A stretch of DNA of 64,000 nucleotides from Actinomycetota bacterium (GTDB lineage: Bacteria; Actinomycetota; Actinomycetes; S36-B12; UBA5976): assembly GCA_026392515.1 (NCBI GenBank), contig JAPLBY010000034.1:300-64299 (forward strand), given 5' to 3'. The position numbers were made by a program, and so were the translations under genes. A model generated the notes under the pieces. The model was given only the letters and a program-made list of their open reading frames with translations, was not told the DNA's origin and made no database searches. This document shows positions 6,623 to 37,569 of the stretch, in pieces (the first letter of the stretch is position 1; each line of letters starts with the position of its first letter).

Positions 6623-6624
6623 TT

Positions 6625-7857
6625 CTACAACTGAGCCTTTGGCACGGTTGCAGGATCTGGAGAGAACGTTCCAACAAGTGAACGTTCGCTGTTCTTGATT
6701 TCAACCAAGGCAACTTCACGAATAGCCATGCGATCGCCACCCTTGTAGCTGATTGCTCCAGTTATGCCTTGAGCGCCTTCAAGATTTGACCATGCTTGCC
6801 AAATCGCATCTGCGTCACAGCTTTGTGCCTGCTTAACAACAGCGTCAAGGGTAAGTCCTAGTTCATAACCTGTTACCGCATAGATGGTCTCAGGATCTTT
6901 ACCGTACTTACCGTTGTAGTCAGTGAAGAAAGTGCTCATTGCGCCTTCATTCTTCAATACACCAGCAGTTGTGTAGGTAACACCTTCAGCAATATCTGCA
7001 AGCGCCAATGTTGTAGGTGAATCGATACCATCTGTTCCAAGAACAGCAGCAGTGATTCCTGCACCACGTAGTGCCTTAATGAAAGTTGGGAAATCAGGCT
7101 CATACGCAGGAGTCATGATGACATCTGGCGCTGGACTTAGTGCCTTGATTTCATCAACAATCACGCTGAAGCTTGCTTGTCCCATTGAGAAGGTGCCTTC
7201 TCCAACAACTTTGCCACCGTTAGCTTCAAATGCTTCTTTGAAATAGCCTGGCAACAAGTTTGTGTAAGCACTATCAGGTGATCCAAGTGTGTATGCATTC
7301 TTGTAACCCTTTTCGGTTGCGTGGTCTGCAAGAACCTTGGCTTGTGTGTTGTCACCAAATGCATTAGAGAACATGTGGTCGCCAACTGCAAGCGGCAAAA
7401 TTGGTGAGGAGCCAAACCAAGATACGGCCGCAATGCCCGCATCCTGAGCCAACTGACCGGCTGCGATTGATGGGTCAGCATCGCCAGGAGTGATCAGGAT
7501 ACTGATTTCCTCAGCTACCAATTCAGCTGCCACGGTTGCGGATTGTGCCGCATCCGAGCGAGTGTCCTTGACTACTGTTTCAATCGTAAACTTTCCGTCT
7601 ACTCCACCAGCGGCATTAACTTGCTCTGCCCATAGTTCAAATCCCTCAAGATTTGGTACGTCAATGTATGCAAGGCCACCAGTCTGGCTTCCCGCTACAC
7701 CAACTTTTACTGTGCAGGCCGCACCAGCTGCAGGAGCAGTTGCTTCGCCGCTCGCTGTGGCTTCTCCGTCACCACTAGCACAAGCAGACACAAGCATGAT
7801 TGCACTTAGGCTCACGGCCATCTTTGTGACCTTAGAAGGTCCAGACTTTCGTTGCAT
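6625..7857 (-). CDS. ABC transporter substrate-binding lipoprotein (Liv/amide/urea-type periplasmic binding fold)
   Basis: Lipobox LVSAC after a hydrophobic N-terminus, followed by a low-complexity linker and a type I binding-protein-like body. Start set at MQRKSG (ATG at 7857), 7 nt after the upstream stop and preceded by GAAAGG. The 7899 start would overlap the upstream gene by 35 nt. Confidence 0.75.
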   Translation of the reverse strand: MQRKSGPSKVTKMAVSLSAIMLVSACASGDGEATASGEATAPAAGAACTVKVGVAGSQTGGLAYIDVPNLEGFELWAEQVNAAGGVDGKFTIETVVKDTRSDAAQSATVAAELVAEEISILITPGDADPSIAAGQLAQDAGIAAVSWFGSSPILPLAVGDHMFSNAFGDNTQAKVLADHATEKGYKNAYTLGSPDSAYTNLLPGYFKEAFEANGGKVVGEGTFSMGQASFSVIVDEIKALSPAPDVIMTPAYEPDFPTFIKALRGAGITAAVLGTDGIDSPTTLALADIAEGVTYTTAGVLKNEGAMSTFFTDYNGKYGKDPETIYAVTGYELGLTLDAVVKQAQSCDADAIWQAWSNLEGAQGITGAISYKGGDRMAIREVALVEIKNSERSLVGTFSPDPATVPKAQL

Positions 7858-9694: not shown

Positions 9695-9793
9695 CGCACC
9701 CCAATCCCCTCATACAGGCTTTCTTTGAATCAAAGCCTAGGAAGTAAGGGGCGTCAAGGGAAACGGGGAAACAGGTGCAATTCGTTACGTTCG

Positions 9794-10606
9794 CTATTCC
9801 TCGGTCTTTATGTAAGGGGTGCCGTTATCCCATAATTCGCAAGTTAACTTCAGGTTTGCAGCCAGATTTCGGATTATCCCTTCATGTGATGGGTTTATCA
9901 CAATAAAGACCCCTCCGGAGAATTCACTATCATCGCGTCTTAAAGAATCGGCAATTCGATCAAGTGGCTGGAAATGCATGCCCTCCCAGCCGATGCTTCG
10001 GTAGGTGTCGGCACAAATTGCAAGCTTGTTTTTGCCACCCTGGGCCCAGCCCATGATTCCGATGTAATGGCCTACATTCCAGTCGGCTGGTGGCTCTTGA
10101 ACCTTACGTCCAGAGAGGAATCCAAAAGCCGTTGCCGGTTCGGATTTGCCACCCCACAAGAAGCGTGTGGCACTATTTGCAATCAATAATGCAGGTTGAT
10201 TTAGGTCAACTAATGCTTCGAGGAGGTTTTCTATAATTTCTGCAGTCCACTCTCCTCGCAACGGTATTGCAACAAGTTTTGAATCAGCTAGTTCATTAGT
10301 TGCAACCACAAGACCTTCAGGTGAAGTACCAGTTATGTTGCTGTCATCAATCCGCGGCAATTCAAGAATGTAGTCAGCTCGCCCACCATCATTTGGTGGC
10401 AGTGATTCGCTGGTTTGAACCGTACTGAGGATTGAGCCCGCAGCGAGGCCAACGTGATCTTGTTGAACTTTTACTGAGGCCAGCGCACGAAGCGCTAACG
10501 TAATCCAAAATGCACCGCATAACTCATTTTTTTGCGGCATTTCACTTGCATGTTCAGCAAGTAAAAGTTCAGATCCGGGCAACATTTGGATTGTGTATTG
10601 ACTCAT
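9794..10606 (-). CDS. hypothetical protein, possible papain-fold (phytochelatin synthase-like) Cys-His-Asp enzyme
   Basis: 270 aa. Cys30 in QKNELCGAFWITLALRAL, His180 in NVGHYIGIMGW, Asp200 in LAICADTYRSIG. The order and the His-Asp spacing recall phytochelatin synthase-like proteins. Similarity judged by eye only. Confidence 0.35.
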   Translation of the reverse strand: MSQYTIQMLPGSELLLAEHASEMPQKNELCGAFWITLALRALASVKVQQDHVGLAAGSILSTVQTSESLPPNDGGRADYILELPRIDDSNITGTSPEGLVVATNELADSKLVAIPLRGEWTAEIIENLLEALVDLNQPALLIANSATRFLWGGKSEPATAFGFLSGRKVQEPPADWNVGHYIGIMGWAQGGKNKLAICADTYRSIGWEGMHFQPLDRIADSLRRDDSEFSGGVFIVINPSHEGIIRNLAANLKLTCELWDNGTPYIKTEE

Positions 10607-18260: not shown

Positions 18261-19946
18261 TTACATCCTGTCGGGTGCGCTAACACCCAGCAATTCAAGA
18301 CCGTTGAAAATCACTTGACGCGTTGCAGCGCATAGCCAAAGCCGTGCGATGTTTAGCTCAGTAACTGGCTCGTCCCCTTGTGGCAGAACTCGGCAAGCAG
18401 CATAGAACGAGTGGTAGCTGGTTGCTACTTCCTCTATATAGCGAGCAATTCGGTGAGGCTCGCGAAGTTCGGCAGCTGATGCGACCACGCGTGGGTAATC
18501 AGCTAATAATCCAAGCAGGGCGCCTTCCCGATCATTGGTTAGCTGCGAAGGATCAAAAGTTGCTGGATCCCAATCGGAAGTGTTTGCCGGGATCAAACCA
18601 AGTTCAGCAGCATTTCTAACAACTGATGCAATGCGGGCATGTGCGTATTGCACGTAATAAACCGGATTGTCGTTTGTGCTGGACACCAATAGATCAAGAT
18701 CAAGAACCAACGGAGATTCCACTGGATATCGAATCAATGAATAACGCGCAGCATCCACGCCAACTTCATCGACAAGATCTTCAAGCGTGATGATATTGCC
18801 AGCGCGTTTTGATAAGCGAACTTCTTCACCATTCTTGAGCATCTTTACCATTTGCCCAATCAGGAGCTGAATGTTTTCATCTGGATTATCTCCAGCACAA
18901 GCTGCGACTGCGCGAAGTCGGTTCACGTATCCGTGGTGGTCAGCACCCAATAAATAGATACATAGGTCGTAGCCACGATTGCGCTTATCTACGTAGTAAG
19001 CAGTATCGGATGCGAAGTACGTTAATGCGCCATCCGCCTTGATTAGCACACGATCTTTGTCATCATCGAAATCACTGGTTCGAAGCCAAGTTGCGCCTTC
19101 TTCGACAAACATATGTCCCTGAGACTTTAACTTTTCAAACCCTCGATTAACGGCTCCTGAGGTGTGGAGTGATTTTTCAGAAGTCCAAACATCAAAATGC
19201 GTATTGAAGTTATCTAGAACTCGCTTTTGATCCGCAAGTTGTAATGCATATGCAGCATCGCGAAACGCATCGCCTCTTTGTGGTTCTGGCAATTCTTTAA
19301 TTCCTGGATTTTGTGAAACTACTTGCTTAGCAAGCTCTGGAATGTAAGCGCCGTGATAACCATCTTCTGGAATTGCTTCGCCTAATGCGGCTGCCTTAAC
19401 CGAAGTTCCAAATTTATCCATCTGAACGCCAAGATCATTGATGTAAAACTCGCGCGCAGATTCTGCGCCTTCGGCTTCAAGGACGCGAGCGATCGCATCT
19501 CCAACTGCTGCCCAACGAGTGTGACCTAAATGTAGCGGTCCAGTTGGGTTCGCAGAAATGAATTCCACATTGATCTTTTTGCCCACTAGCTGAGTGCCAC
19601 GACCAAAACTATTTCCTTTAGCAATGATGTCTCGCGCTAGCTCACCTTGACTTGCAGCATCCAGCCGGATGTTTATAAATCCTGGACCTGCAATTTCAAC
19701 ACCTTCTACGCCTGGGAGCTCATTCAGGATTGGTTGCAGAATTTCTGCTGCTGCACGCGGATTCAACCCAGCTTTTTTACCCACTTGCATAGCGACATTG
19801 GTTGCCCAATCGCCATGATCCAAATTTTTTGGCCGTTCAACCACAATTTCAGCAGGGATGTCATCGGCAGATAAATTCAATTGACCGCTGGAAATTGCAC
19901 TAAGCAAGGCGGCCCTAATGTGGCCAGCTAATTCCTGTGGGGTCAT
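18261..19946 (-). CDS. argS: arginine--tRNA ligase
   Basis: 561 aa. Class I HIGH-type motif ANPTGPLHLGHTR and a C-terminal DALR anticodon-binding region. Ends in RM as is typical for ArgRS. Confidence 0.95.
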   Translation of the reverse strand: MTPQELAGHIRAALLSAISSGQLNLSADDIPAEIVVERPKNLDHGDWATNVAMQVGKKAGLNPRAAAEILQPILNELPGVEGVEIAGPGFINIRLDAASQGELARDIIAKGNSFGRGTQLVGKKINVEFISANPTGPLHLGHTRWAAVGDAIARVLEAEGAESAREFYINDLGVQMDKFGTSVKAAALGEAIPEDGYHGAYIPELAKQVVSQNPGIKELPEPQRGDAFRDAAYALQLADQKRVLDNFNTHFDVWTSEKSLHTSGAVNRGFEKLKSQGHMFVEEGATWLRTSDFDDDKDRVLIKADGALTYFASDTAYYVDKRNRGYDLCIYLLGADHHGYVNRLRAVAACAGDNPDENIQLLIGQMVKMLKNGEEVRLSKRAGNIITLEDLVDEVGVDAARYSLIRYPVESPLVLDLDLLVSSTNDNPVYYVQYAHARIASVVRNAAELGLIPANTSDWDPATFDPSQLTNDREGALLGLLADYPRVVASAAELREPHRIARYIEEVATSYHSFYAACRVLPQGDEPVTELNIARLWLCAATRQVIFNGLELLGVSAPDRM

Positions 19947-20003
19947 ACAAAGTAAGACTAGCGAAAGCCTTGCAAATTAAGGAAATCCCCCACCAATGAA
20001 TGG

Positions 20004-20651
20004 CTAAGGTTTTTTGATTACCTGACTGACAACAGATACAGAATTCTCACGATGTGCTGCCTGAAGTGCAATGGATTTTTCCACGTCTCTGGCCTTAAGA
20101 GCTGCCACCATCGTCCGGTGTTCTTGATTCATGTGGGCAAGATTTGCAGGTGCTGCGAAGTAAACCCCGCGGTAGGCATCAGTTGCATCCCACTGGTTCT
20201 TAATGAGTCTGACCAGCCGAGGCATGTTACTCGCCTCGAACAATGCGAAGTGGAATCTGCGGTTCGCAGCAGTAACTGCTGATACGTCTTGAGACTTAGC
20301 CGCTGCTTCCACATCATTAAGGATGTCTTCGAGGTACTCAACGTCCTCGTCGGTCAGTAGCGGAACGCCAACTCGAATTGCTTCATCTTCTAGCAAGGAG
20401 CGAATTCGATACACCTCTACTAAATCTTCAACACTCAAGTCAGCGACAAAGTATCCGCGGTGTGGGTGATACGTGACTTGACCTTCACCTTCGAGAACTT
20501 TAAGGGCTTCCCGCAACGGAACTCGACTCACGCCAAGGCTGGCAGCTAATGAATCTTGAACCACTTGCTGACCCGGTTCAAGTTGCCCAGATGCAATTAG
20601 GACTCGAAGTTCGCGAAGAACTCCTTCTTGGGCGGTTACGTTCTCGCTCAT
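20004..20651 (-). CDS. GntR-family transcriptional regulator, FadR/FCD subfamily
   Basis: N-terminal wHTH (SLAASLGVSRVPLREALKVLEGEG) and an all-helical C-terminal FCD-like domain. Confidence 0.85.
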   Translation of the reverse strand: MSENVTAQEGVLRELRVLIASGQLEPGQQVVQDSLAASLGVSRVPLREALKVLEGEGQVTYHPHRGYFVADLSVEDLVEVYRIRSLLEDEAIRVGVPLLTDEDVEYLEDILNDVEAAAKSQDVSAVTAANRRFHFALFEASNMPRLVRLIKNQWDATDAYRGVYFAAPANLAHMNQEHRTMVAALKARDVEKSIALQAAHRENSVSVVSQVIKKP

Positions 20652-21799
20652 GCTTCATCCAAACTTGGTGGGGCTACCGCATATCGAACTGGCGTTAGAG
20701 AAAACATAATTGGGTTTGCAACTTGTTTTCGTTCTTCGCCTTCTTGATTAATTGTGATGATTGGATTTAACTCCAAAGATTCAGCTAGTTCGAAGGCTTC
20801 AGAGATTGAATTGATTGGCCCACACGGCACTCCAGCATCAGAAAGCAGCTTCCACCAATGGTCTGCGCCATGCTGCGCGAACTGCTTAACCAACAGATCA
20901 TTTAGTTCGACTCGATTAGCAACTCGATCTGGGTTGGTTGCAAATTTTGGATCACCGGCAATTGCTGGGATTCCAAGTTCTTGGCACAACTTTGCAAACT
21001 GCCCATCGTTTCCAACTGCAACAACAATTGGGCGATCTGAAGTTTGATAAACCTCGTATGGACTAATTGAAGGATGAGCATTTCCTAAAATTCCAGGAAC
21101 GACGCCCCCAGAAACATATGAGCTGGCTTGATTGACCATTGCTGAAAGCAACGATGATAAAAGGTTGACTTCAATTTCCTGACCTTCGCCCGTTACATTT
21201 CGATGATTCAACGCAGCCAGTAAACCGATCGTGGCATGCATTCCAGTGATTACATCGACAAGTGCAACACCAACTTTGGTTGGTTCGCCTGGCGCAGGAC
21301 CAGTAACGCTCATCAGGCCGCCCATGGCTTGAACCAACAAGTCATAACCTGGCATCGCTGCCCCAACGCCAGATCCAAATCCAGTAATTGAACAGTAGAT
21401 AACTTCAGGCTTTAACTTCTTTACCGCCTCGTAATCCAATCCAAACTTTTCACTATTGCTCGGTGGGAAGTTATGAATGACAATGTCAGAGCGCTTAATT
21501 AGTTCATGGGCTTCAGCTAAGCCAGCCGGGTTTGTCATATCTATTGCAACTGATGTCTTGTTTCGATTTACTGACTCAAAATATGTTGCTCGCCCGGCTG
21601 CGTCATAAGGCGGGCCCCAGTGGCGAGTATCGTCGCCAACTTCTGGACGCTCAACTTTAATTACTGTGGCGCCCATGTCACCAAGCAACATAGTTGCGTA
21701 GGGACCAGCCAAAACTCGAGTGAAGTCGGCAACAACGATTCCGTCTAATGGGCCCATATGAAGATTGTATCCAATCTTGTTGGGGAGATTTGATGGCAA
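20648..21799 (-). CDS. family III CoA-transferase (CaiB/BaiF/Frc-like)
   Basis: LDGIVVADFTRVLAGPYATMLLGDMGATVIKVERP is the hallmark N-terminal region. Alternative start at MGPLDG (21757). Overlaps the downstream regulator gene by 4 nt. Confidence 0.85.
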   Translation of the reverse strand: MPSNLPNKIGYNLHMGPLDGIVVADFTRVLAGPYATMLLGDMGATVIKVERPEVGDDTRHWGPPYDAAGRATYFESVNRNKTSVAIDMTNPAGLAEAHELIKRSDIVIHNFPPSNSEKFGLDYEAVKKLKPEVIYCSITGFGSGVGAAMPGYDLLVQAMGGLMSVTGPAPGEPTKVGVALVDVITGMHATIGLLAALNHRNVTGEGQEIEVNLLSSLLSAMVNQASSYVSGGVVPGILGNAHPSISPYEVYQTSDRPIVVAVGNDGQFAKLCQELGIPAIAGDPKFATNPDRVANRVELNDLLVKQFAQHGADHWWKLLSDAGVPCGPINSISEAFELAESLELNPIITINQEGEERKQVANPIMFSLTPVRYAVAPPSLDEA

Positions 21800-22621: not shown

Positions 22622-23404
22622 TTACATTGCTTCCAAGGCAGCAAGTGATTCCGGAAGAATTTGGCCACCATCAATTACCAAGGCTTGCCCAGTTACGTAA
22701 GCAGCTTCTTTTGTTGCAAAAAACAACGCAGCATTACCAATGTCATCAACTTCGCCTAAGCGTCCTTGCGGAACCGAAGCTTCCATTGCTTTGCGGTACT
22801 CAGGTCCCATGTCTGCAAGACCTTCGGTTGCAATGTTTCCTGGAAGTACCGCATTAACAGTGATTCCCTTTGGTGCTAACTCGATTGCGGCTGTGCGCAT
22901 GAAACCAAGTTGTGCTGCTTTGCTTGCGCCGTAATGCGACCAGCCCGGAAAACCTGTTACCGGGCCTGTGATCGATGAAGTGAGAACGATTCGACCATGA
23001 CCTGACTTTTCTAAAGCAGGCAGACAAGCCTGCACTGAAAGCATGGTGCCTTTAACATTTGTTCCAAACACTAAGTCCATGTCTGCTTCAGACATGGTCG
23101 CAAGTTTGGAATCTGGGAAAATTCCCGCGTTTGCACAAAGTACATCGATGCCGCCATTGCGTTCGATTGCGGTTTTGGCAACCATTTCGCAAGCTGATTT
23201 GCTGCTAACTTCAGCGATGACATAAGTAACGGTGCCGCCACCTAGGGCAGTCAGTTCTGCGCAGGCAGACTTAGCGCTTGCTTCATCGCGTCCTGTAATA
23301 AGAACATTTGCTCCAGCTTTTGCAAAGACTCGGGCAATACCTTTACCGATGCCTTTTGTTCCGCCAGTAACAACAACGGAATATCCACTTACTGAAGTAA
23401 ACAT
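22622..23404 (-). CDS. short-chain dehydrogenase/reductase (candidate aminoacetone reductase / 1-amino-2-propanol dehydrogenase of the BMC locus)
   Basis: TGGTKGIGKGIA cofactor motif, NAGI, and YGASKAA (YxxxK). Start set at MFTSVSG (ATG at 23404) with AGGAGA upstream. The longer ORF (to 23488) would overlap the kinase gene. Substrate assigned by locus context. Confidence 0.8.
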   Translation of the reverse strand: MFTSVSGYSVVVTGGTKGIGKGIARVFAKAGANVLITGRDEASAKSACAELTALGGGTVTYVIAEVSSKSACEMVAKTAIERNGGIDVLCANAGIFPDSKLATMSEADMDLVFGTNVKGTMLSVQACLPALEKSGHGRIVLTSSITGPVTGFPGWSHYGASKAAQLGFMRTAAIELAPKGITVNAVLPGNIATEGLADMGPEYRKAMEASVPQGRLGEVDDIGNAALFFATKEAAYVTGQALVIDGGQILPESLAALEAM

Positions 23405-23448
23405 GTTCTCTCCTAGTTTCCTAACGAGTTGTCGAAGGTTTCTTACAA

Positions 23449-24438
23449 TTATGCAAACTTTGACAGGTAGTTTTCGGCCAATTCGCAACTTACTTTGGTG
23501 AAATTGGCTCCCATTTCCTTGCCAGTATCTGTATCTTGATGCGTTCCCACCCAGGCGACGAGCAAAAGGCGTCGAAACATGATGAAAGTTGGAAGCTCTG
23601 CCTCTTCTTCCTTACTCAAATCGGCGACGCTTCGGTAACCATCTACCCAAGATGCAGTCATATCTGGAATCAAAGGGTGGTCTTCAATAAATGAAACTGA
23701 TGAACCTAGGTCATACATAAACCAACTAAAGCCGCAATCATCAAAATCAATGACTGTCACGTCTTTGTCCGCAACGAGTAAATTTGCAAGTCGCATATCG
23801 GCATGCACTAAACCAAAACGATCTTTTGATTTTCCAAATCGTTCTAGTCGAGATCCCAAAGTGTCGGAAAGCCGGCCAAGGATTTCTAATTCACTTGGTC
23901 CCATTGCAAGACCATCACGCCAAGATCCCCAGTGACCATTAGGGCCAAGTGCGGTTTCAAAATCCCAAGTAAATCTAAAGAAGTTACTCGGACGCTGCCA
24001 CTGTTTTGATTGATCATGTAGCCGAGCTGTGATCGCACCTAAAGTTTTGAAGTCATCAACAAGGCGATCTTCAGTAGGCTCAACGCCTGGCATGAATTCA
24101 AACATGACCGCATGACGCTCTTCGCCAGTTGAATCTTGCGCAGAGATAATTTGCTCACCAGATCCCGCAGGCAAAATTGCGGGAGTTCTGACAAGTTGAA
24201 CTTCGCGCAATGCTTGCACCCAATCAAGCTCACTCTGGATTGCTTGCGCAGTGTGATAAAACGGCCGATGAATTCTCAGAATCGTGTCAGTGCCGGTATT
24301 GCTATCGACAACCTTAAAAGTGGCATTCTCAGAAATGTTTAGAAGTGAAACCTCGGACTCTGGTGAATATCCAAACTTCGCAACGGCATCCCTGGCAAAC
24401 TCATGAAGCTTTGCAGGTTCGTTCGAGTACCCACTCAT
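23449..24438 (-). CDS. APH-fold (aminoglycoside phosphotransferase family) kinase, candidate 1-amino-2-propanol kinase
   Basis: 329 aa. Catalytic loop LVHADMRLANLLV (HxDxxxxN) and metal-binding IDFDDCG. Position in an RMM-type BMC locus. Confidence 0.8.
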   Translation of the reverse strand: MSGYSNEPAKLHEFARDAVAKFGYSPESEVSLLNISENATFKVVDSNTGTDTILRIHRPFYHTAQAIQSELDWVQALREVQLVRTPAILPAGSGEQIISAQDSTGEERHAVMFEFMPGVEPTEDRLVDDFKTLGAITARLHDQSKQWQRPSNFFRFTWDFETALGPNGHWGSWRDGLAMGPSELEILGRLSDTLGSRLERFGKSKDRFGLVHADMRLANLLVADKDVTVIDFDDCGFSWFMYDLGSSVSFIEDHPLIPDMTASWVDGYRSVADLSKEEEAELPTFIMFRRLLLVAWVGTHQDTDTGKEMGANFTKVSCELAENYLSKFA

Positions 24439-24512: not shown

Positions 24513-25169
24513 TTAGCCTTGATCGCGACCAACTACTGCTTCAAGAGCCTGCGTAATTGCATCACGGGCCTTTGTAACACTTTCTGTTGTTCCACTCATG
24601 TATACCCGACCAGCTGCGCCGATCATTTGTACATCAACCAGCGTCACATCAGGTGCAACTTTTTCAGCTTCGTTAGCTGCAACCGTTGCAAAAAGTGCTG
24701 GTGTCATTTCGTATACCAAGAGTGATTCACCGGGCATAACCATCGAAGCTTGACGATTTCGGTTCAGAATAATTGCATGCTGATCCGTGATGTTTTCGAT
24801 GATGTCGCTGTAAAGAATCCGCGGGCGAAGTTGATCAGCTGCTGATGCGTTAATGCCATCAAGAATTGCCTGACCAGCTCGCTTCACTAACTCGATGTCG
24901 GAAGCATGTACTTCCAGAACTCCGAATTGGCGTTCTACGAACAAAATGCCAGGTTCAACTTCAGGTACCGACTTCAGCGCCAAGTCAATTACTCGCTCGA
25001 TCGCAAGCCCGGGTGCCACCTCAATGATCAACGAGTGCTGACCACCGTAAGGCGGGTAACCACGGGCTCGCGTCGGCGTGCTCATGTAAGCAGCGAATTG
25101 CTGCTGGAGCTCTTCAACAAGCAAGTAGACGCGTAGTTCGGGCCCTGCTACGAGCGGGCCCGTACTCAC
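24513..25169 (-). CDS. BMC shell protein, tandem-domain (BMC-T)
   Basis: 218 aa with two BMC-like repeats (IIEVAPGLAIERVIDLALKSVPEV..VERQFGVLEVHA and YEMTPALFATVAANEAEKVAPDV..IGAAGRVYMSG). Paralogous to 26290-26889. Confidence 0.8.
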   Translation of the reverse strand: MSTGPLVAGPELRVYLLVEELQQQFAAYMSTPTRARGYPPYGGQHSLIIEVAPGLAIERVIDLALKSVPEVEPGILFVERQFGVLEVHASDIELVKRAGQAILDGINASAADQLRPRILYSDIIENITDQHAIILNRNRQASMVMPGESLLVYEMTPALFATVAANEAEKVAPDVTLVDVQMIGAAGRVYMSGTTESVTKARDAITQALEAVVGRDQG

Positions 25170-25450
25170 GCGGAATCGCCAACTTTGAAGAACTTGTTTA
25201 GTTCTGCGTGTGGACGTGGAATTACGTGCTGTGAAACTAGTTCGCCAACTTGGTTAACTGCTTCGGCACCTGCATCAGTTGCAGCCTTAACTGCACCGAC
25301 ATCTCCCACGATGACTACAGCTACAAGGCCGTCGCCAACTTCTTCACGCGCAACAATAGTTACATTGGCTGCCTTAACCATGGCATCTGCAGCAGCTACA
25401 GCAGCTACATATCCCTTGGTCTCGATCAAGCCCAGTGCGTTGCTTGACAT
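25166..25450 (-). CDS. BMC shell protein, hexamer type (BMC-H, PduA/CcmK-like)
   Basis: 94 aa. ALGLIETKGYVAAVAAADAMVKAANV....GDVGAVKAATDAG is the canonical single BMC-domain pattern. Strong AGGAGA Shine-Dalgarno upstream. Confidence 0.93.
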   Translation of the reverse strand: MSSNALGLIETKGYVAAVAAADAMVKAANVTIVAREEVGDGLVAVVIVGDVGAVKAATDAGAEAVNQVGELVSQHVIPRPHAELNKFFKVGDSA

Positions 25451-25532: not shown

Positions 25533-25802
25533 CTAGGAAGCGCTGTGCTTCCCAGAACTCTTAGTGTTCTCATCAATCGAACCGATGATGAGAGCGTCAA
25601 TTGGCGGGGTTACGTCCGGGAACCACGAGGCTGCTACCGAGCCCGTTGAAACCAAAACGCTTTCCCCAATTCCAGAACCTAAAACGTCAAAGGCAACCAA
25701 GTGTGCGCCACCCTCAACTTCGAGTTCGAGAAAGGCCCCATTGGGAATCTCGGTTAGACGACGAGTCGCCCATACATTGCCGATAACACGCGCTTTTAAC
25801 AT
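25533..25802 (-). CDS. BMC vertex protein (BMC-P, EutN/CcmL family)
   Basis: 89 aa. MLKARVIGNVWATRR..VAFDVLGSGIGESVLVSTGSVA..IDALIIGSID matches the EutN/CcmL pattern. Confidence 0.9.
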   Translation of the reverse strand: MLKARVIGNVWATRRLTEIPNGAFLELEVEGGAHLVAFDVLGSGIGESVLVSTGSVAASWFPDVTPPIDALIIGSIDENTKSSGKHSAS

Positions 25803-26290
25803 CAGCGCATCACCGATCCCTTCTGATTATCTTGTTGACTTTCTCTAATAATCGTTACTCCCAAGTCGCGCGCTTTATCGCGTGCAAGTGATGTAACGAC
25901 TACCTTCCGAGCCACGATCAAAGTTGATCCTGACTCGGCAGCTTTTCTGATTGTTGATTCGGTGACGGCACCCTTTTCAATGCGAGTGGTACCAGAATCA
26001 TGATTGCTATGGCTCGAAGTTGCATTGCCTAGCTGAAATACAAGTTCGCCTTGGCGCATAGCGTTAAGAGTTTTTGAGTCTGACGCTAGGTCAAGTACGC
26101 GATTTACAAAATTGGACACATCTGAATTGCTGCTTAGCAAAACCACTTCTATTACTTGCGCAGTTTTCGTTGGTTGTTGAGTTTGACCCGAGAGTGCTTT
26201 TGCAGCATCGCGAATACCGTCGGCTCCCCCGAGGGCATCACGTAGTGCTTCGCGCACTAGCGAGCGCAGCATTTCATTATCAGTGGACAT
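25802..26290 (-). CDS. hypothetical BMC-locus protein with N-terminal encapsulation-peptide-like amphipathic helix
   Basis: 162 aa. Residues 6-20 (EMLRSLVREALRDAL) form an amphipathic helix, followed by a G/Q/T-rich linker and a ~110-aa domain I cannot assign. It shares 1-nt start/stop overlaps with the shell genes on both sides (25802 and 26290). Confidence 0.6.
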   Translation of the reverse strand: MSTDNEMLRSLVREALRDALGGADGIRDAAKALSGQTQQPTKTAQVIEVVLLSSNSDVSNFVNRVLDLASDSKTLNAMRQGELVFQLGNATSSHSNHDSGTTRIEKGAVTESTIRKAAESGSTLIVARKVVVTSLARDKARDLGVTIIRESQQDNQKGSVMR

Positions 26291-26889
26291 TAGCGTTCAC
26301 TCAAAACTTTTTCAGCAACTTCAGCGGCTGCTCGAACGTTAGCTTCTTTGCCGGAAAGATAGACGCGACCAGTTGCACCAATCATTCGATAGTCAACGAC
26401 TTTGATGTCGGTTGCTTTCTCAGCTTCGTTGGTTGCCAAGATCGCGTATGAAGCCGGCTGGACTTCCAGGATGTAAAGAGATTCGCCCGGCAAAATCATA
26501 GATCCAACTTTGTTCCTATTAATAAGGAATGCATGCTGCTGATCAACCGATGGCACTACGCGTGATGCCAAGATTTTTGGTTTCGTCGCTTCTGCTTCAG
26601 TGGCACCTAAAGCAGCAAGTACTGCCTGACCAGCGGCGCGAACTTCTTCAGTTGGACCATGAATCTCAAGGTAACCGAAAGTTCGTTCCACAAACAAAAT
26701 TCCAGCTTGAACGTTCGCATGCTTTAGTGCAACGTCGGTAAGTGCTTCGATGTCCAGACCAGGTGCTACTTCAATTACTTGAGCAGCCATGTTTGCGCGT
26801 GGCAAAGCACCCTTAACCCATGAACCTAGGTAGCACATGGTTTGAGGTTGCATTTGGTCGATGTAGATGAACGACCGTAGCTCTGCCAT
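26290..26889 (-). CDS. BMC shell protein, tandem-domain (BMC-T), second paralog
   Basis: 199 aa. Repeats VIEVAPGLDIEALTDVALKHANV..VERTFGYLEIHG and LEVQPASYAILATNEAEKATDIKV..IGATGRVYLSG. Confidence 0.8.
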   Translation of the reverse strand: MAELRSFIYIDQMQPQTMCYLGSWVKGALPRANMAAQVIEVAPGLDIEALTDVALKHANVQAGILFVERTFGYLEIHGPTEEVRAAGQAVLAALGATEAEATKPKILASRVVPSVDQQHAFLINRNKVGSMILPGESLYILEVQPASYAILATNEAEKATDIKVVDYRMIGATGRVYLSGKEANVRAAAEVAEKVLSER

Positions 26890-26906: not shown

Positions 26907-28478
26907 TTAGTTCTTGATCAATGCGTGAAGTTCTTCGACGATCAACTTGCGGATTTCGTCTCGTAACTCAGCAACGTCTTGGGTTATCGGCTCGCGATGG
27001 TGATAGGAGTTTCCAGTTCCATAGTTTTCTTCATTGGATGCAACTGGATATGAAGGAACCGGACCGCTTGGACTCATCCATGGATTCAGGCCTGCAAAAG
27101 ATGGCATCACTTCGCGCGCATCAGCGTTGTAGGCAAGGCGCGTGTAGTTGATCAAATGCTTTGGCTGCAAATTTTCACCGACCGAAGATCGACCGGCAAA
27201 ACCAGTTCCGATAGTCATGGTTGGAGCTAAGTTCGTTTGAATTCCAGAAGCGCCAAGGCTGTTGCCGACATTTACCGAAACGCGGAGTACCGGAACTGCT
27301 GCGCTAAACGTCATGATCAATTCAGGATTTGAACTATGGATTGCAGCTGAATGTCCAGCGCCTGTAATGCGCAAGATCGCTCGAGCAATGTCGATTCCCC
27401 GAGTTGCAGTTGGTACGCGGACGAAACCTAGGACTGGGCACAATTTTTCATGAGCTAGAGGTTCTTCAGGCACCACTAGATCAAATGGTGCAACTAAAAC
27501 TCTAGTTTTGGCTGGAACTTTAATGCCCGCTTTTTCAGCAATCCAGACCGCATCCTTGCCAACCATCTTGGTGTTGAAGTGACCCTCTGGAAAAACTGCA
27601 TTACGAACGGCATCGCGCTCGTCATCCTTCAATACATATGCACCTTCGCGAGCAAAAGCCGCTAGCAACTTATCTGCGATCGCTTCTTCAGCGATTACAA
27701 CGCTTTCGTTAGTGCAAAGAATTGAGTTGTCGAATGCCTTGCTTTCAATAATTCGTGCAGCAGTCTTGGCAAGATCTGCTGTGGCATCGACTAAAACTGG
27801 AACGTTTCCAGGTCCCACACCAATTGCCGGATTTCCGCTTCGGTATGCCGATCGCACAACTGGCGTGCCACCGGTTGCAACCACGACATCGGTTCGCTCA
27901 TCAGTCATCAAAGCATTGATTAATGGAATTGAAGGGTCCTCAACAATTTGGATGATGCCATCCGGAGCTCCGGCTGCAACTGCCGCTTCAGACATTGCCT
28001 TAGCTGCTGCAACACAGACTTTCTTTGCCATTGGGTGCGGGCTAATGATGATGGAGTTACGTGTCATCAAGGCCAAGATGATTTTGAAAGAAACGGTAGC
28101 GACTGGATTAGTTGACGGGGTCAGTGCCAAGATCACGCCAGCAGGACGAGGGATCGCAACAATTTTGTTAACTTCATCTATCTCTGGTGAAACAAAATCT
28201 TGACCACGGTAAGACTCGACGATTCCGGTTGAACACGCAATATTCTTAAGAACTTTATGTTCAGCAACGCCAAAGCCAGTTTCGGATACGGCATCTCGAG
28301 CAAACTCTTGTGCTCTGGTTGCCAAGGCGGAAGCAGCCGCGTCAACAATGCGATTCACCGTTGCGATGTCGTACTTTGCGTAGGCCCGGGCAGCCCAATC
28401 AGCACGTTCCACCATTGCGCGACCACGTGGAACACCGGCTGGTTCAACCATTAACGGCTCAAAAGTCATTTCGCTCAT
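26907..28478 (-). CDS. CoA-acylating aldehyde dehydrogenase (PduP/EutE family) with C-terminal extension
   Basis: 523 aa. Catalytic-cysteine context FDNSILCTNESVVIAEE, as in EutE/PduP/AdhE-N. After the catalytic core comes a ~60-aa tail ending VAELRDEIRKLIVEELHALIKN (amphipathic helix). Confidence 0.88.
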   Translation of the reverse strand: MSEMTFEPLMVEPAGVPRGRAMVERADWAARAYAKYDIATVNRIVDAAASALATRAQEFARDAVSETGFGVAEHKVLKNIACSTGIVESYRGQDFVSPEIDEVNKIVAIPRPAGVILALTPSTNPVATVSFKIILALMTRNSIIISPHPMAKKVCVAAAKAMSEAAVAAGAPDGIIQIVEDPSIPLINALMTDERTDVVVATGGTPVVRSAYRSGNPAIGVGPGNVPVLVDATADLAKTAARIIESKAFDNSILCTNESVVIAEEAIADKLLAAFAREGAYVLKDDERDAVRNAVFPEGHFNTKMVGKDAVWIAEKAGIKVPAKTRVLVAPFDLVVPEEPLAHEKLCPVLGFVRVPTATRGIDIARAILRITGAGHSAAIHSSNPELIMTFSAAVPVLRVSVNVGNSLGASGIQTNLAPTMTIGTGFAGRSSVGENLQPKHLINYTRLAYNADAREVMPSFAGLNPWMSPSGPVPSYPVASNEENYGTGNSYHHREPITQDVAELRDEIRKLIVEELHALIKN

Positions 28479-32887: not shown

Positions 32888-33321
32888 TGCCAAGAGTTGA
32901 ACGTATGGAAATCGATTTAGCACTAGCCATCGAAATGACCAACGCTGCAAAGGCTAAGGCGATTGAAATAAGTGCGCCTATGTCAATTGCAGTACTCGAT
33001 GCTGGCGCTAACTTGCTGAGCTTCCAAAGAATGGATGGCGCGGAATTAGCTGGACCGAATTTGGCGGTTGATAAGGCTTACACCTCGGTAACGAATCGAA
33101 TTGATACCGGTGACTTGCGAAGTCGCGTTGCTCCTGATGGTGACTTGCCTGGCATGAGTGCAAATGGCAATGGTCGTTACATCGCATTCACTGGTGGCAT
33201 TCCGTGCTGGGATGGCGATCGAGTAGTTGGAGCAATTGGCGTAAGTGGTGGTTCTTGGGAAGAGGATCAAATTTGTGCTGAAGCTGGAATTGAAGTCTTC
33301 AAGCGAGCTTGTAGCGCATGA
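32887..33321 (+). CDS. GlcG/DUF336 (PduO C-terminal domain-like) protein
   Basis: 144 aa. MSIAVLDAGANLLSFQRMDGA...AVDKAYTS...GGIPC..DGRVVGAIGVSGG fits the GlcG/HbpS-like family often encoded next to diol or glycerol dehydratases. ATGA overlap with the next gene. Confidence 0.75.
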   Translation: MPRVERMEIDLALAIEMTNAAKAKAIEISAPMSIAVLDAGANLLSFQRMDGAELAGPNLAVDKAYTSVTNRIDTGDLRSRVAPDGDLPGMSANGNGRYIAFTGGIPCWDGDRVVGAIGVSGGSWEEDQICAEAGIEVFKRACSA

Positions 33322-35552
33322 CTAACAAAGAACCGATTGGCCGCTTTCGGTTCATGAATGAACAGCGGGTCAATTTAGACGGCTTCGCTACACCGGCACC
33401 TGAACTCGGCTTAGTTGCATTTAACGGATTAAACGATCCAAAACCTTCCTTAATAATTCGTGATAACCGAATTATCGAAATGGATGGTCGTGCTGAATCT
33501 GAATTCGACTCAATTGATGAATTCATTGCCCGCCATGGTTTAGATCTAGGGGTTGCCCAAGAAGCAATGGCAATTGCAGACATTGACTTTGCTCGAAGAC
33601 TTGTGGATCCAAATCACTCTCGCGCAGACATTGTGCGACTTTCCTCAGGCATGACACCTGCGAAATTGGCAGCAGTTCTTTCGCTATTAAGTGCTGCAGA
33701 ACTTGTTATCGCAATGGCAAAAATGCGGGCACGACGAACGCCAAGTAACCAGGCACACGTCACAAATAGATCTGATGATCCACTCTTGCTTGCAGCTGAC
33801 GCTGCAACTGCCGCCGCTTTTGGTTTTCGCGAACTTGAGACTACGGTCCCGGTAGCAGCAGATGCACCATCTAATGCTGTTGCAGTTTCTATTGGCGCGG
33901 CAGTTGGGTCACCTGGCGTCTTAGTTCAATGTTCGGTTGAAGAATCAGCAGAGTTGGCATTAGGTATGCGTGGATTGGTTTCCTATGCCGAAACGGTTTC
34001 GCTTTATGGAACAGAGCAAATCTTTATTGATGGTGATGACACTCCTTGGTCAAAAGCATTCTTAACTAGCGCTTACGCAAGTCGCGGCATAAAGATGCGT
34101 GTAACTTCCGGTGGCGGATCTGAAGCCCTGATGGGTGGCGCTGAAATGTGCAGCATGTTTTACCTTGAAGCTCGATGCGTTGCACTAGCCCGAGCAATTG
34201 GCGCTCAAGGTGTGCAGAACGGTGGCATTGATTCTGCTGCGGTAGCCGGCGCCGTTCCTGGTGGCGTTCGTTCTCTGATGGCAGAAAACGTAATGGTTAT
34301 GATGCGAAACTTGGAAGCCTGTACTGGAAACGACGCTTTGATGAGTGAGTCAGATGTCAGGCGAACCTCTCGCACTCATCCAATCTTTATCGGTGGCTCT
34401 GACTTCATAAATAGCGGCTTTGGTTCGATTCAGCGCTACGACAATATGTTTGGTCCTAGTCAGTGGAACTCAGAGGACATAGATGATTTCTTAGCCATGC
34501 AACGTGACTGGGGTGTTGATGGCGGGCTTAGAACTGCGGACGAAGTAGAAGTTGAAAGACTTAGGCGCCGAGCTACTGAAGCAGTTACTGCGGTTTATTC
34601 CTGGCTTGGACTTGGAGACTTCTCGCAAGAGTGGGCCGAAGAAGCTATCGACGCAGCTGGATCAAAAGACATTTCTTCTGGCGACTTAATGCTTCCACTA
34701 ACTGCTGCCCGCACAATAATGGAAACTAACGTCACGATGCTCGACGTTATTGCCGCGCTTGCGGAAAATGGTTTTGATCTAGAAGCCCAAAGATGTCTCG
34801 ATATGCTTAAAGCTCGTGTGGCCGGTGACTATTTACAAACCTCAGCAATTTTTGATGAGCAAATGAATGTTCTATCGCTGGTCACTGATCCAAATGAATA
34901 TTCAGGACCAGGTACTGGTTACCAACCAAGCAGCGCTCGGCAAACGGAAATCGACACAATTCGCCAACAGCGTTCAGTTTCAGACTTGCGGACTGAGCAG
35001 CAAAGTTTTGCGAATAAAAATATTTTTGCATCTGGTGCTGCTGAGACAAGTTACGATCCTCGCGATGTTGTTATTGGAGTTTCGCCAGCAACTGGAAAAG
35101 ATATCTGGGTAACGCTCTCTGGATTAAGTCTTGCTGACGCAATATCAGAAGTCCTCGCAGGTTTAGAAGAAGAAGGATGCACTGGACGAATCGTCAGAAT
35201 TAACGACTCTCTCGATTTAGGAATGATTGGTCTTACTGCAGCCAGACTTTCTGGTTCAGGAGTCAGCGTTGGACTACAAGCAAAAGGTACGGCCTTGATT
35301 CATCGCAGAGATCTTGCGCCGTTAGCAAATCTAGAACTGTATTCAGTAGCACCAACTATCACCCGTGAGCTTTATCGCATGATGGGTATCAATGCTGGCC
35401 GTCATGCCAAGGGCGCCACTCCTGAGCCCGTTAGAAATCCTTACTCAGACGAGGCAATCGAAGCGCGCTATCACACCAAAGTAGTTTCGCTAGTTGCGAT
35501 TGAGCGTGAGTGCGTGAATAGTAACGGACCTGAAGTTATGGAGCTTAGATAG
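33318..35552 (+). CDS. pduCD: B12-dependent diol/glycerol dehydratase, fused large (PduC-like) and medium (PduD-like) subunits
   Basis: 744 aa. Residues 1-~560 align by eye with PduC (KMRARRTPSNQAHVTN, GFRELETTV, VQCSVEESAELALGMRG, YAETVSLYGTE, DDTPWSKAFLTSAYASRGIKMR, YDNMFGPSQ, GDYLQTSAIFD). Residues ~582-744 align with the PduD core (RLSGSGVSVGLQAKGTALIH..LANLELY). The N-terminal ~45 aa of free-standing PduD are absent. Confidence 0.92.
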   Translation: MTNKEPIGRFRFMNEQRVNLDGFATPAPELGLVAFNGLNDPKPSLIIRDNRIIEMDGRAESEFDSIDEFIARHGLDLGVAQEAMAIADIDFARRLVDPNHSRADIVRLSSGMTPAKLAAVLSLLSAAELVIAMAKMRARRTPSNQAHVTNRSDDPLLLAADAATAAAFGFRELETTVPVAADAPSNAVAVSIGAAVGSPGVLVQCSVEESAELALGMRGLVSYAETVSLYGTEQIFIDGDDTPWSKAFLTSAYASRGIKMRVTSGGGSEALMGGAEMCSMFYLEARCVALARAIGAQGVQNGGIDSAAVAGAVPGGVRSLMAENVMVMMRNLEACTGNDALMSESDVRRTSRTHPIFIGGSDFINSGFGSIQRYDNMFGPSQWNSEDIDDFLAMQRDWGVDGGLRTADEVEVERLRRRATEAVTAVYSWLGLGDFSQEWAEEAIDAAGSKDISSGDLMLPLTAARTIMETNVTMLDVIAALAENGFDLEAQRCLDMLKARVAGDYLQTSAIFDEQMNVLSLVTDPNEYSGPGTGYQPSSARQTEIDTIRQQRSVSDLRTEQQSFANKNIFASGAAETSYDPRDVVIGVSPATGKDIWVTLSGLSLADAISEVLAGLEEEGCTGRIVRINDSLDLGMIGLTAARLSGSGVSVGLQAKGTALIHRRDLAPLANLELYSVAPTITRELYRMMGINAGRHAKGATPEPVRNPYSDEAIEARYHTKVVSLVAIERECVNSNGPEVMELR

Positions 35553-35554
35553 TT

Positions 35555-35920
35555 ATGCGTGAACAAAAAGGTTTTTCTGGGAAAAACGTTTCTGAAGTAA
35601 CTGTTGAGTCAATTCGACGCGGCGACATTACTCTCGACGATGTCAGAATCCATCCTGAAACTTTGGCAAAGCAAGCCCAAGTAGCCAGAGACAATGGCAA
35701 TCCACAATTAGCTGAAAACTTTCTTCGCGCCGCAGAGCTAACTTCGTTATCAGACGAGTTAGTTATGGGTTACTACGATGCCTTGCGTCCGGGACGTTCA
35801 ACTCCCACACAGCTATTAGAAATTGCCGACGACTTATCAAAGCATGGTGCGGAAAAGAACGCAGAACTATTTAGGCAAGCGGCAGATGTCTATGCTCGTC
35901 GTGGTTTAGCAGCAAAATAG
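35555..35920 (+). CDS. pduE: diol dehydratase small subunit (PduE-like)
   Basis: 121 aa. DDVRIHPETL..QA..A...G...LA.NF.RAAELT...D.....YY.ALRPGRST...LL.IADDL matches the PduE core. Lacks the N-terminal extension of enterobacterial PduE. Confidence 0.88.
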   Translation: MREQKGFSGKNVSEVTVESIRRGDITLDDVRIHPETLAKQAQVARDNGNPQLAENFLRAAELTSLSDELVMGYYDALRPGRSTPTQLLEIADDLSKHGAEKNAELFRQAADVYARRGLAAK

Positions 35921-35925
35921 TTCTC

Positions 35926-37569
35926 ATGGGACTTGTTGCTGGAATCGACATTGGTAATTCCACGACTGAAATTGTGATCGCGTCTGGAAGTGAGCCAATT
36001 GCCTGGGATCGCAGACCCACTCGGGGCATTAAGGGTTCGGAAGCCTCAATAAAGGCGGCTGTTTCATTGCTACAGAGTTTGCAGCGTGAACACCAGATTG
36101 TGGTCGAAAAGGTAGTAGTGGCTCCGTGGCAACCAGTTGAGACATTAACTTCAACTATTCACGAACCATTGCCAGATACTGGTCGGTTGCAAATCCTAAA
36201 GACCGCTCATCAAAGTGTTGTTGGTGATGGCTGGGCAATTGGCAAACCCTGGTTGATGACCAAAGAAGTAGTTAATAACGGTCCCTTGATCGCAATCGTC
36301 CCAAGTGGTGTGGGATTCGAGTTTGCTGCCGCAGCTATCAATCGAGAGTTGGCAAATGGTTCAAACATAGTTGGCGCTGTAATCGCCGATGACGAAGCCG
36401 TACTGGTTGCTAAGCGCATAAGTGCAGAAATTCCTATCGCTGATGGTGTGGATGTAGAAGTAGCGCGTACCGCGCAGAGACTTTTTCTTGAAGTGAGGCC
36501 ACAAAACTCTTCACTTAAAATCGCCACTGATGTTTGGGCACTACGTTCAGCACTCGAGCTTTCCGAAATGGATGCAAGTCCGTTGAATGAAATTGTGCGT
36601 TGGGTTAAAAACGAACGGACTGCATTAATTGCACTTTTTTCAGAAACTCAAATCTCAATTCAAACCAAGAACGGTTTCATTGATTGGATTGATGGCACAT
36701 CAACTGAGCTATTTGAAGCAATTGCCAAAATCGAAAACTCCCTAATCGGCCATGTTTCTAGAGTTGTGATTACAGATCCAATCAACACTTCTGACATTTG
36801 GGCTTTTGACATTACAAAAGTTTTAGCGGATCGAGGTTTACGACAAGTAGGACACACTCGAGACTTAGCGCTAGCGCAACTTTCGCCACACGGCTTTAAC
36901 TCAGATGTTGACTTATCGGCGCTGTTTGGAGTTCCAGTCGAAATTGCGGAATCAGAAAGTTTCGCTGCGCGAATAGGTGCAACAAGTACACCTGGTGTTG
37001 GATCGGGCGCCGCAATCCTTGACATTGGGGGCGGCACCATCGACTTGATTTCGGAGATTGAATTATCCGCAGCAGGTGCTGGCGAACTGCTAACTGCCGC
37101 AGTTGCTTTTGCATTAGGAACATCTCGAGGAGCTGCAGATTGGATCAAACGCGGACCTGCTCAAAGACTTGAGTCGCCACAAGTGCTTCTTTCCGAAGAT
37201 GGCAGCAAAGCATTCGTTGCCGAATCTGCACCATATCCAGCTTCTGCCATGGGTTCCTTAGTCACGCCAGGTCCGGCAGGATTTCTAACTTTCGGACAGA
37301 ACTTGCAGCCTGCCGAATGGCGGATCATGCGCCAGGGCTTAAAGCAGGCTGCAATTGGGTTAAATGTGTCACGGTTGATTAGAAGCTTGGAAGCCCGAAC
37401 TGGAAATTCCAAAGAGCTAGATCTTGTCGTAGTCGGCGGACCTGTGGCCGATGATGAACTGCTCCCAGTTATCGGAGCCGTTCCAGGTATTAAAGGAATT
37501 GGCCGCGGAAATGTTGCAGGGAAACTTGGCCATAGATATGCCGTTGCCTATGGTCTTTCCCAAATTTAA
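35926..37569 (+). CDS. pduG: diol dehydratase reactivase large subunit (PduG/DdrA-like)
   Basis: 547 aa. Starts MGLVAGIDIGNSTTEIV (ASKHA/actin-fold phosphate-1 motif, as in DdrA). Second ATPase motif AAILDIGGGTIDL. No PduH/DdrB-like ORF follows. Confidence 0.85.
   Translation: MGLVAGIDIGNSTTEIVIASGSEPIAWDRRPTRGIKGSEASIKAAVSLLQSLQREHQIVVEKVVVAPWQPVETLTSTIHEPLPDTGRLQILKTAHQSVVGDGWAIGKPWLMTKEVVNNGPLIAIVPSGVGFEFAAAAINRELANGSNIVGAVIADDEAVLVAKRISAEIPIADGVDVEVARTAQRLFLEVRPQNSSLKIATDVWALRSALELSEMDASPLNEIVRWVKNERTALIALFSETQISIQTKNGFIDWIDGTSTELFEAIAKIENSLIGHVSRVVITDPINTSDIWAFDITKVLADRGLRQVGHTRDLALAQLSPHGFNSDVDLSALFGVPVEIAESESFAARIGATSTPGVGSGAAILDIGGGTIDLISEIELSAAGAGELLTAAVAFALGTSRGAADWIKRGPAQRLESPQVLLSEDGSKAFVAESAPYPASAMGSLVTPGPAGFLTFGQNLQPAEWRIMRQGLKQAAIGLNVSRLIRSLEARTGNSKELDLVVVGGPVADDELLPVIGAVPGIKGIGRGNVAGKLGHRYAVAYGLSQI

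Follow-up and report, generated by a model that had tools for sequence, protein, structure and literature searches.

A small protein encoded between the shell genes of RMM/AAUM microcompartment loci is a candidate core-shell tether resembling PduM and the EutQ N-terminus

To our knowledge, the physical coupling between cargo core and shell has been worked out for two metabolosomes only, Pdu and Eut, whose linkers have been treated as unrelated, and no assembly factor has been assigned to the RMM/AAUM compartment. Here we describe a 162-aa protein encoded among the shell genes of an RMM/AAUM locus, in a 64,000-nucleotide (nt) stretch of DNA from an Actinomycetota bacterium (GenBank assembly GCA_026392515.1, contig JAPLBY010000034.1, forward-strand positions 300 to 64,299), hereafter called the window. 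A preliminary description of this DNA had left the function of the protein unassigned. We can now propose one, and hold it reasonably probable that the protein tethers the cargo core to the shell.

In the Pdu compartment, residues 1-23 of PduM suffice to direct GFP to the core of the microcompartment, also in a pduB mutant in which core and shell are separated (PMC12108088). Deletion of pduM, or of its signal sequence only, leads to partial core-shell separation and oversized compartments, and an un-encapsulated cytosolic body of PduM perturbs shell formation (PMC12108088, PMC9132943). PduM has been described as a protein without known homologs outside Pdu (PMC12108088). In the Eut compartment, the N-terminal 99 residues of EutQ are necessary and sufficient for compartment association, and the EutQ N-terminus is required for the association of shell and cargo (PMC12487888). 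EutQ without residues 9-41 (H1/H2) remains with the cargo aggregate; EutQ without residues 62-99 (H3/H4) remains with the shells. H3/H4 binds the encapsulation peptides (EPs) of EutC and EutE, with a dissociation constant of ~6-8 uM for EutC 1-20, and microscale thermophoresis showed EutQ-EutM-EutL interactions (PMC12487888). The same study makes no mention of PduM. Pull-down of EutM needs the first 100 residues of EutQ (PMC4827028).

In the window, the 162-aa protein is encoded on the minus strand within a run of bacterial microcompartment (BMC) shell genes:

26290..26889, minus strand: upstream BMC-T gene (tandem, CsoS1D-like shell protein), with a BMC domain by Pfam; its stop overlaps the start of the 162-aa open reading frame (ORF) (TAATG)
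25802..26290, minus strand: coding sequence of the 162-aa protein, from the ORF and its translation; stop codon at 25802-25804; ratio of nonsynonymous to synonymous substitution rates (dN/dS) 0.06-0.20; family clusters
25533..25802, minus strand: downstream BMC-P (EutN/CcmL) vertex gene, by Pfam; its start overlaps the stop of the 162-aa ORF (TGATG)
25166..25450, minus strand: BMC-H gene, by Pfam
24513..25169, minus strand: second tandem BMC gene, divergent, by Pfam

As described previously, the ORF is coupled to the neighbouring shell genes on both sides, each time through an overlap of 1 nt. The minus strand at 26290 reads ...GAACGCTAATGTCC..., where the final A of the BMC-T stop (...CGC TAA) is the first base of the ATG of the ORF; at 25802 it reads ...ATGCGCTGATGTTAAAA..., where the ORF ends in ...CGC TGA and shares its last A with the ATG of BMC-P. 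The start codon is pinned by an in-frame stop two codons upstream. Orthologs of the 199-aa upstream neighbour carry CsoS1D_N and BMC domains, and this neighbour is therefore a BMC-T(dp).

The protein had been called an orphan, which proved wrong. We found 133 family clusters at 90% identity (90%-clustered database, E <= 1e-3); a profile search of 1.84 billion representatives yielded 988 at 50% identity, 618 with E <= 1e-10. Conservation at the same position in RMM loci, which the preliminary description had marked as worth checking, was found throughout: the order BMC-T / family gene / BMC-P / BMC-H / BMC-T is kept in all 80 genome loci retrieved, most of them from Actinomycetota and others labelled Alphaproteobacteria, Verrucomicrobiia, Acidobacteriota and Gemmatimonadota. 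Since these loci were retrieved using the 162-aa protein itself as the query and the set is thus biased, a metagenome scan was seeded with the BMC-T neighbour only. Among the 70 metagenome loci that continue for 450 nt or more downstream of BMC-T, a family member lies between BMC-T and BMC-P in 69, and the sole exception is a truncated locus that also lacks BMC-P and BMC-H. This synteny indicates that the gene is a core component of such loci. On the exceptional contig (Ga0207674_10012335), purine-biosynthesis-like genes on the opposite strand directly follow the aldehyde dehydrogenase (AldDH) and BMC-T genes; either the RMM locus is truncated or rearranged there, or the contig is an assembly chimera.

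The dN/dS of the window gene, determined against seven Nanopelagicales orthologs, together with the conservation of the family, rules out that the ORF is a non-gene or a shadow of an opposite-strand ORF. The gene is real and universally linked to RMM shell genes. Neither Pfam nor NCBIfam has a model that claims the family, and RefSeq lists the Rhodococcus jostii RHA1 ortholog (WP_011600239.1) as 'hypothetical protein'. Structures have been solved for all RMM/AAUM shell proteins in Mycobacterium smegmatis (Sutter et al. 2021). The name table of the BMC catalog of hidden Markov models (HMMs) holds msmeg_0271, 0272, 0273, 0275 and 0276, and the gene between 0273 and 0275 is absent from it; by position, the M. 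smegmatis ortholog is msmeg_0274. The family is thus an unannotated yet ubiquitous core component of RMM/AAUM loci. On the R. jostii RHA1 linear plasmid pRHL2 we observed two identical BMC-T / family member / BMC-P / BMC-H modules (positions 5048-6644 and 8941-10537 of the retrieved locus).

Alignments, stop-to-stop translations of the 80 loci and an AlphaFold2 (AF2) model of the full-length protein, with a mean predicted local distance difference test (pLDDT) score of 64, divide the protein into the following parts:

26231..26284, minus strand: residues 3-20, N-terminal amphipathic, EP-like helix MLRSLVREALRDAL, from AF2, hydrophobic moment and conservation
26156..26230, minus strand: residues 21-45, variable linker 1, with pLDDT <50 at 34-42, family variability and high dN
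26027..26155, minus strand: residues 46-88, middle domain (beta-alpha-alpha-beta), from AF2 and conserved residues
25991..26026, minus strand: residues 89-100, variable linker 2, with pLDDT <50 at 90-99 and the highest dN of all segments
25841..25990, minus strand: residues 101-150, C-terminal beta-alpha-beta-alpha-beta domain (RIEKGAVTE...VVTSLARDKARDLGVTII), the proposed shell-docking part, from AF2, conservation and HMM
25805..25840, minus strand: residues 151-162, clade-specific C-terminal tail (…NQKGSVMR), from the alignment; low pLDDT

Selection acts unevenly on these parts. The helix (dN 0-0.15) and the C-terminal domain (dN 0-0.075) are the most constrained, and the two linkers are the least constrained, with dN up to 0.59. 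In the C-terminal domain E111 and T133 are invariant, and G107, T110, A117, G121, V131, L135, A136 and A140 are nearly so; modelled alone, the domain reached a pLDDT of 78, with 86-89 in its core. The tail ...NQKGSV(M/N/S)R is strongly kept in the Nanopelagicales-like clade, and other members end in ...EKER.

An amphipathic helix at residues 6-20 (EMLRSLVREALRDAL) followed by a flexible linker had been read from the letters, and both are borne out. AF2 places a helix at residues 3-19, with the hydrophobic pattern hh..hh..hh..hh. Its hydrophobic moment (0.71 over 14 residues, 0.84 over 11) exceeds that of every other stretch of the protein and lies in the range of the signal helices of PduD, EutC and PduM. 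The moment is only modestly unusual for this composition, as 4.3% of shuffles of the same 15 residues reach it. R9, V12 and L16 vary little or not at all, and residues 7-19 (MLRSLVREALRDA) align residue for residue, in register, with residues 7-19 of the Salmonella PduD signal sequence (LLRQIIEDVLRDM, from an annotated record). The linker that follows shows low pLDDT and high dN, and across the wider family it is P/A/G-rich and ~20-100 aa long; in the clade of the window, AF2 adds a low-confidence second helix at 23-34 within it. Three features of the EP class are present, namely a terminal position (residues 3-20 of 162), an amphipathic alpha-helix of ~15-20 residues and a poorly conserved flexible linker after it. 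We therefore regard this segment as a putative N-terminal helix of the encapsulation-peptide type.

The middle domain consists in the AF2 model of E47-50, H55-69, H72-79 and E84-87, with V50, V62, G81, F85 and L87 conserved. Its resemblance to a ParD ribbon-helix-helix (RHH) antitoxin (PDB 7ycs_D) is not significant (E = 1). A short form of the family, 100-116 aa long, is without this domain: it has two tandem helices (ELRALVREVLRD-ELRALVREALRDAL), a linker and the C-terminal domain, and it holds the same position in an RMM1-like locus (positions 8001-8324 of the retrieved locus). Since the short form keeps only the (duplicated) helix and the C-terminal domain, these two appear to be the indispensable modules. 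Given the weak ParD-like resemblance and the second helix copy that takes the place of the middle domain in the short forms, one may speculate that the middle domain raises valency by dimerisation and the short forms do so by helix duplication, which would fit both observations.

We then turn to the C-terminal segment, which the preliminary description could not assign to a named family. This holds in so far as no curated family claims it, but the segment shows remote and reproducible homology to PduM, the EutQ N-terminus and TIGR02536. The weak library matches all point to microcompartment proteins, and always through this same segment. TIGR02536 ('eut_hyp') was matched by 23 of 24, then by 44 of 71 family members, at about positions 142-206 of 207 and with a best E of 5.7e-6. 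Positions 4-51 of the EutQ model NF012001 were matched by 8 of the 71 members; the NCBIfam PduM models were matched by 6/71 (best E 2e-4, all far under cut-off and the window protein not among them), and Pfam PF15953 (PduM) by 1/71 (3.5e-4).

Direct comparisons were made with PduM and EutQ sequences from annotated records and with a PduM family alignment. Aligned with hhalign, our family and the PduM family matched over the last ~40 residues of both, with a probability of 82% and E 1.1e-5. The family HMM scored 16 PduM proteins at 7.4-23.5 bits, always pairing PduM ~129-162 with HMM positions 118-151, and six EutQ proteins at a modest 5.8-15.1 bits, always pairing EutQ 4-46 with HMM positions 109-149, against a best score of 8.1 bits among 2000 composition-matched shuffles. 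EutQ exceeded this null in 5/6 sequences, which are near-identical to one another. In the reciprocal test, the PduM HMM gave the window protein 14.5 bits, and the null did not go beyond 8.8. It is H1/H2 of EutQ that aligns with the C-terminal domain, and the EutQ N-terminus by itself maps to TIGR02536 positions 162-196, the same segment as our family. The C-terminal motif shared with PduM is ...LV(V/L)xRxxxVT(A/S/P)LAR(D/E)xA...I (…VTALAREAA…IQLIKQE). As judged from these comparisons, the C-terminal domain is homologous to the C-terminus of PduM, and it is probably homologous to EutQ H1/H2 and to the C-terminus of TIGR02536 as well. By the curated definitions, the protein is not a member of the PduM, EutQ or TIGR02536 families.

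No other family came into view. A Pfam scan of the protein and 71 family members gave no family and only scattered matches at chance level, and PDB sequence searches with the single protein and with the profile gave nothing below E = 0.3. Foldseek returned only generic local beta-alpha-beta-alpha-beta superpositions (domain III of IF2/eIF5B, subdomains of pyridoxal phosphate enzymes) at E >= 0.1, which we judged uninformative. Accordingly, no confident match to a housekeeping family emerged from the Pfam, NCBIfam, PDB and Foldseek searches, and no catalytic or cofactor-binding family was matched in the Pfam, NCBIfam and PDB searches, family members included. A tblastn search of plasmids for a TIGR02536 member, with the C-domain consensus, returned Rhodococcus RMM orthologs only. 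Besides, we observed that residues 1-102 of E. coli K-12 EutQ (19303-20004, minus strand, of the retrieved locus) match the first ~87 positions of the EutA subfamily model NF007991 (E 2.8e-10); some genomes may thus carry a fusion of this N-terminal module with the EutA reactivase.

Based on its position, the selection on both ends, the EP character of the helix, the C-domain homology, a locus order like that of pduM, the published function of its relatives and the lack of any catalytic match, we propose that the protein is a small non-enzymatic assembly protein of the RMM/AAUM microcompartment, most likely a core-shell tether. In this proposal, the N-terminal helix would bundle with other amphipathic helices of the condensate and so become part of the cargo core, the flexible linkers would connect it to the C-terminal domain and give it reach, and the shell would be docked on from its lumenal face by the C-terminal ~45-aa domain. 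The partners at both ends, the tether's polarity and the role of the middle domain are inferred. Three functions had been guessed at for the protein, a scaffold or nucleating protein, a cofactor-recycling component and a shell-associated regulator; the evidence favours the scaffold, in the form of a tether, and nothing supports cofactor recycling or regulation.

The foremost helix partner in the cargo core would be the AldDH (coding sequence 26907..28478), which carries a conserved EP of its own after a variable disordered linker:

26910..26972, minus strand: C-terminal EP-like helix of the AldDH, AELRDEIRKLIVEELHALIKN, from motif conservation and a hydrophobic moment of 0.62

At its C-terminus, the AldDH bears ELR[DE]E[IL]R[KR]L[IV][IV]EEL as a motif in 20 of the 23 diverse RMM loci listed, and in the remaining three the AldDH match is split or truncated. 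No comparable EP-like extension was seen on the aminotransferase, the APH kinase or the short-chain dehydrogenase/reductase (SDR) in the RMM loci listed. When all proteins of the locus were searched with an HMM of the N-terminal helix, only the protein itself was matched and no related EP was found.

Several results weigh against the proposed tether and the homology on which it draws. The HMM of the N-terminal helix revealed no sequence similarity to the AldDH EP, so that an interaction between the two would have to rest on physico-chemical character. The RMM shell has BMC-T(dp) and is without the EutL/PduB-type trimers implicated for EutQ. In addition, Yang et al. found no significant association of PduM with shells without the PduB N-terminus (PMC9132943), and direct docking of the module on the shell is thus a supposition even in PduM. 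The window protein scores 21.5 bits against TIGR02536, whose cut-off is 152.6, and fails every curated family cut-off, and the C-domain homology spans just ~30-45 residues. Global hhalign with PduM is weak (probability 25%), with helix aligned to helix and C-terminus to C-terminus in collinear order; the collinear alignment of the two N-terminal helices is not significant (E 0.12). In Foldseek searches of the PDB, neither the full model nor the C-terminal domain alone had a match at E <= 0.001. The link to EutQ is the weakest: the retrieved EutQ N-termini are near-identical enterobacterial fragments that give no diverse profile, hhalign of the family with a single EutQ sequence reached a probability of 24%, and the PduM HMM scores EutQ no higher than the null. 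As the PduM HMM reaches the window protein but not EutQ, it is the RMM family that forms the bridge between PduM and EutQ.

The same parts could be arranged the other way round, as in CcmN. The N-terminal EP would then sit on the shell, in grooves between its tiles, and a cargo enzyme, for example the EP-less aminotransferase, would be bound by the C-terminal domain, the middle domain or both. The CcmN EP recruits CcmK2 (PMC4594438), EPs are reported to bind between tessellating tiles (PMC11157265), and the aminotransferase, kinase and SDR, which have no obvious EPs, would need a recruiter if they are encapsulated. However, the PduM signal sequence goes to the core and not to the shell in the pduB mutant (PMC12108088), and EutQ H1/H2, homologous to the C-terminal domain, is needed for shell and not for cargo association (PMC12487888), which makes the reversed arrangement unlikely.

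An EP followed by a linker is also the architecture of cargo enzymes, and the protein could then be encapsulated cargo with a metabolic or cofactor role, for instance a small ligand-binding or cofactor-recycling subunit, with the EP serving for packaging only. RMM loci are without obvious enzymes for NAD+/CoA recycling (PMC4207490), and the C-terminal domain has a half-Rossmann-like topology and superposes locally on domain III of IF2/eIF5B. However, no enzyme or cofactor-binding family was matched, each structured part measures only ~40-50 aa, conservation falls mostly on G, A, T, V and L, with a single invariant Glu and without any Cys/His/Asp constellation, and the detected relatives are structural BMC proteins only. 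We consider this reading quite improbable.

That the protein is instead a regulator or an extra-lumenal assembly factor (a dimeric RHH-like DNA binder, or an external control of compartment number, size or vertex capping), as the beta-alpha-alpha middle domain with its weak ParD likeness, the coupling to the BMC-P vertex gene and the enlarged or elongated compartments upon PduM loss (PMC12108088, PMC9132943) might be taken to suggest, is very improbable, because the RHH likeness falls short of significance and none of the 71 members matches an RHH family of Pfam, the putative beta-strand carries a conserved acidic residue and not basic ones, the short forms lack the middle domain entirely, and the locus already encodes GntR regulators.

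Returning to the tether with its helix in the core and its C-terminal domain on the shell, we raise a broader and more tentative suggestion, which we would not yet put at even chances. The ~45-aa domain may be a shell-docking module common to PduM (PDU), the EutQ N-terminus (EUT1/GRM), TIGR02536 (EUT2) and the RMM/AAUM family, with the RMM family as the bridge, and each of these proteins may, with the same reservation, combine the module with amphipathic helices through which it enters the cargo condensate. If this is true, a single conserved two-part tether would explain core-shell coupling across functionally different metabolosomes. If the family is the RMM tether and its C-terminal domain is the module of PduM and EutQ, a missing core component of RMM biogenesis would be identified, a small transferable shell-docking domain with a helix tag would be usable for engineering cargo loading, and a unifying hypothesis of metabolosome assembly would become directly testable.

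Upstream of the shell genes, the locus encodes a class-III aminotransferase and the AldDH, and downstream of them an APH-family kinase, the SDR, GntR regulators and a family-III CoA-transferase; a permease, an amidase, a GlcG-like protein and a diol dehydratase with its reactivase are encoded on the opposite strand. It is an RMM/AAUM amino-alcohol (amino-alcohol/aminoacetone) microcompartment locus. Its arrangement is the 'RMM2' of Axen et al. (PMC4207490), and its gene order is RMM1/AAUM1-like in the scheme of Sutter et al. The window has a G+C content of 47.7%, and its nearest genomic relatives are metagenome-assembled genomes of Candidatus Nanopelagicales, with 95-98% protein identity. The window thus shows abundant freshwater Nanopelagicales-type actinobacteria with the complete machinery.

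Further observations concern the genes around the shell operon. A family-III CoA-transferase-like ORF (383 aa) and a second GntR gene, at 20004-21799 on the minus strand, end the operon mainly in Nanopelagicales-type loci, and the former could bear on the question of CoA recycling in RMM compartments. The SDR ORF at 22622-23488 (minus strand) has 288 aa with a TTG start as listed and overlaps the end of the kinase gene; as its homologs start at an internal ATG (MFTSVSG..., ~23404), the true SDR probably has ~260 aa. The B12-type diol dehydratase genes lie at 33318-37569 on the plus strand, opposite to the shell operon. Their 744-aa ORF matches the diol-dehydratase large-subunit ORFs of related loci over its length and looks like a fusion of the large and medium subunits; it is followed by the small subunit (35555..35920) and the reactivase (35926..37569), all on the plus strand. 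No EP-like N-terminal extension was seen on the diol dehydratase, which occurs in many but not all related loci, on either side.

Among the described systems closest to the window protein is PduM of the 1,2-propanediol microcompartment of Salmonella, Klebsiella and Citrobacter (PF15953, TIGR04493, NF011957). The two have nearly the same length (162 aa for the window protein, 163 aa for PduM), an N-terminal amphipathic helix, which in PduM is the core-targeting signal, homologous C-terminal ~30-40 residues and no enzymatic domain, and the pduM gene lies directly upstream of pduN (BMC-P), as the window gene does of its BMC-P gene. However, statistics detect the C-terminal module only, the middle regions cannot be aligned with confidence, and the host compartment differs from RMM in shell proteins and pathway. 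TIGR02536, a hypothetical protein of ethanolamine loci that was compared by profile alone, is the best and most consistent library match, through the last ~50 of its 207 profile positions; our family leaves the rest unmatched. CcmN of the beta-carboxysome, likewise an adaptor without enzymatic function, uses a terminal EP and a second domain to connect the cargo matrix with the shell (PMC4594438), but it has a hexapeptide-repeat domain and a C-terminal EP that binds the shell, without any sequence or domain relation to the window protein. EutQ's N-terminal part (residues 1-99) in the ethanolamine microcompartment has the same beta-alpha-beta-alpha-beta module as the C-terminal domain, together with amphipathic helices and a flexible linker in between, and is experimentally a bridge between shell and cargo (PMC12487888). 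The order of the modules is reversed in EutQ, with the shell module N-terminal and the cargo-binding H3/H4 after it, and EutQ (PF06249) continues into a C-terminal dimerising cupin/acetate-kinase domain, whereas the window protein has no cupin match and ends 12 residues past its small domain. Altogether, the description that suits the protein best is that of a probable shell-cargo tether, PduM-like and EutQ-N-like, with an architecture of its own.

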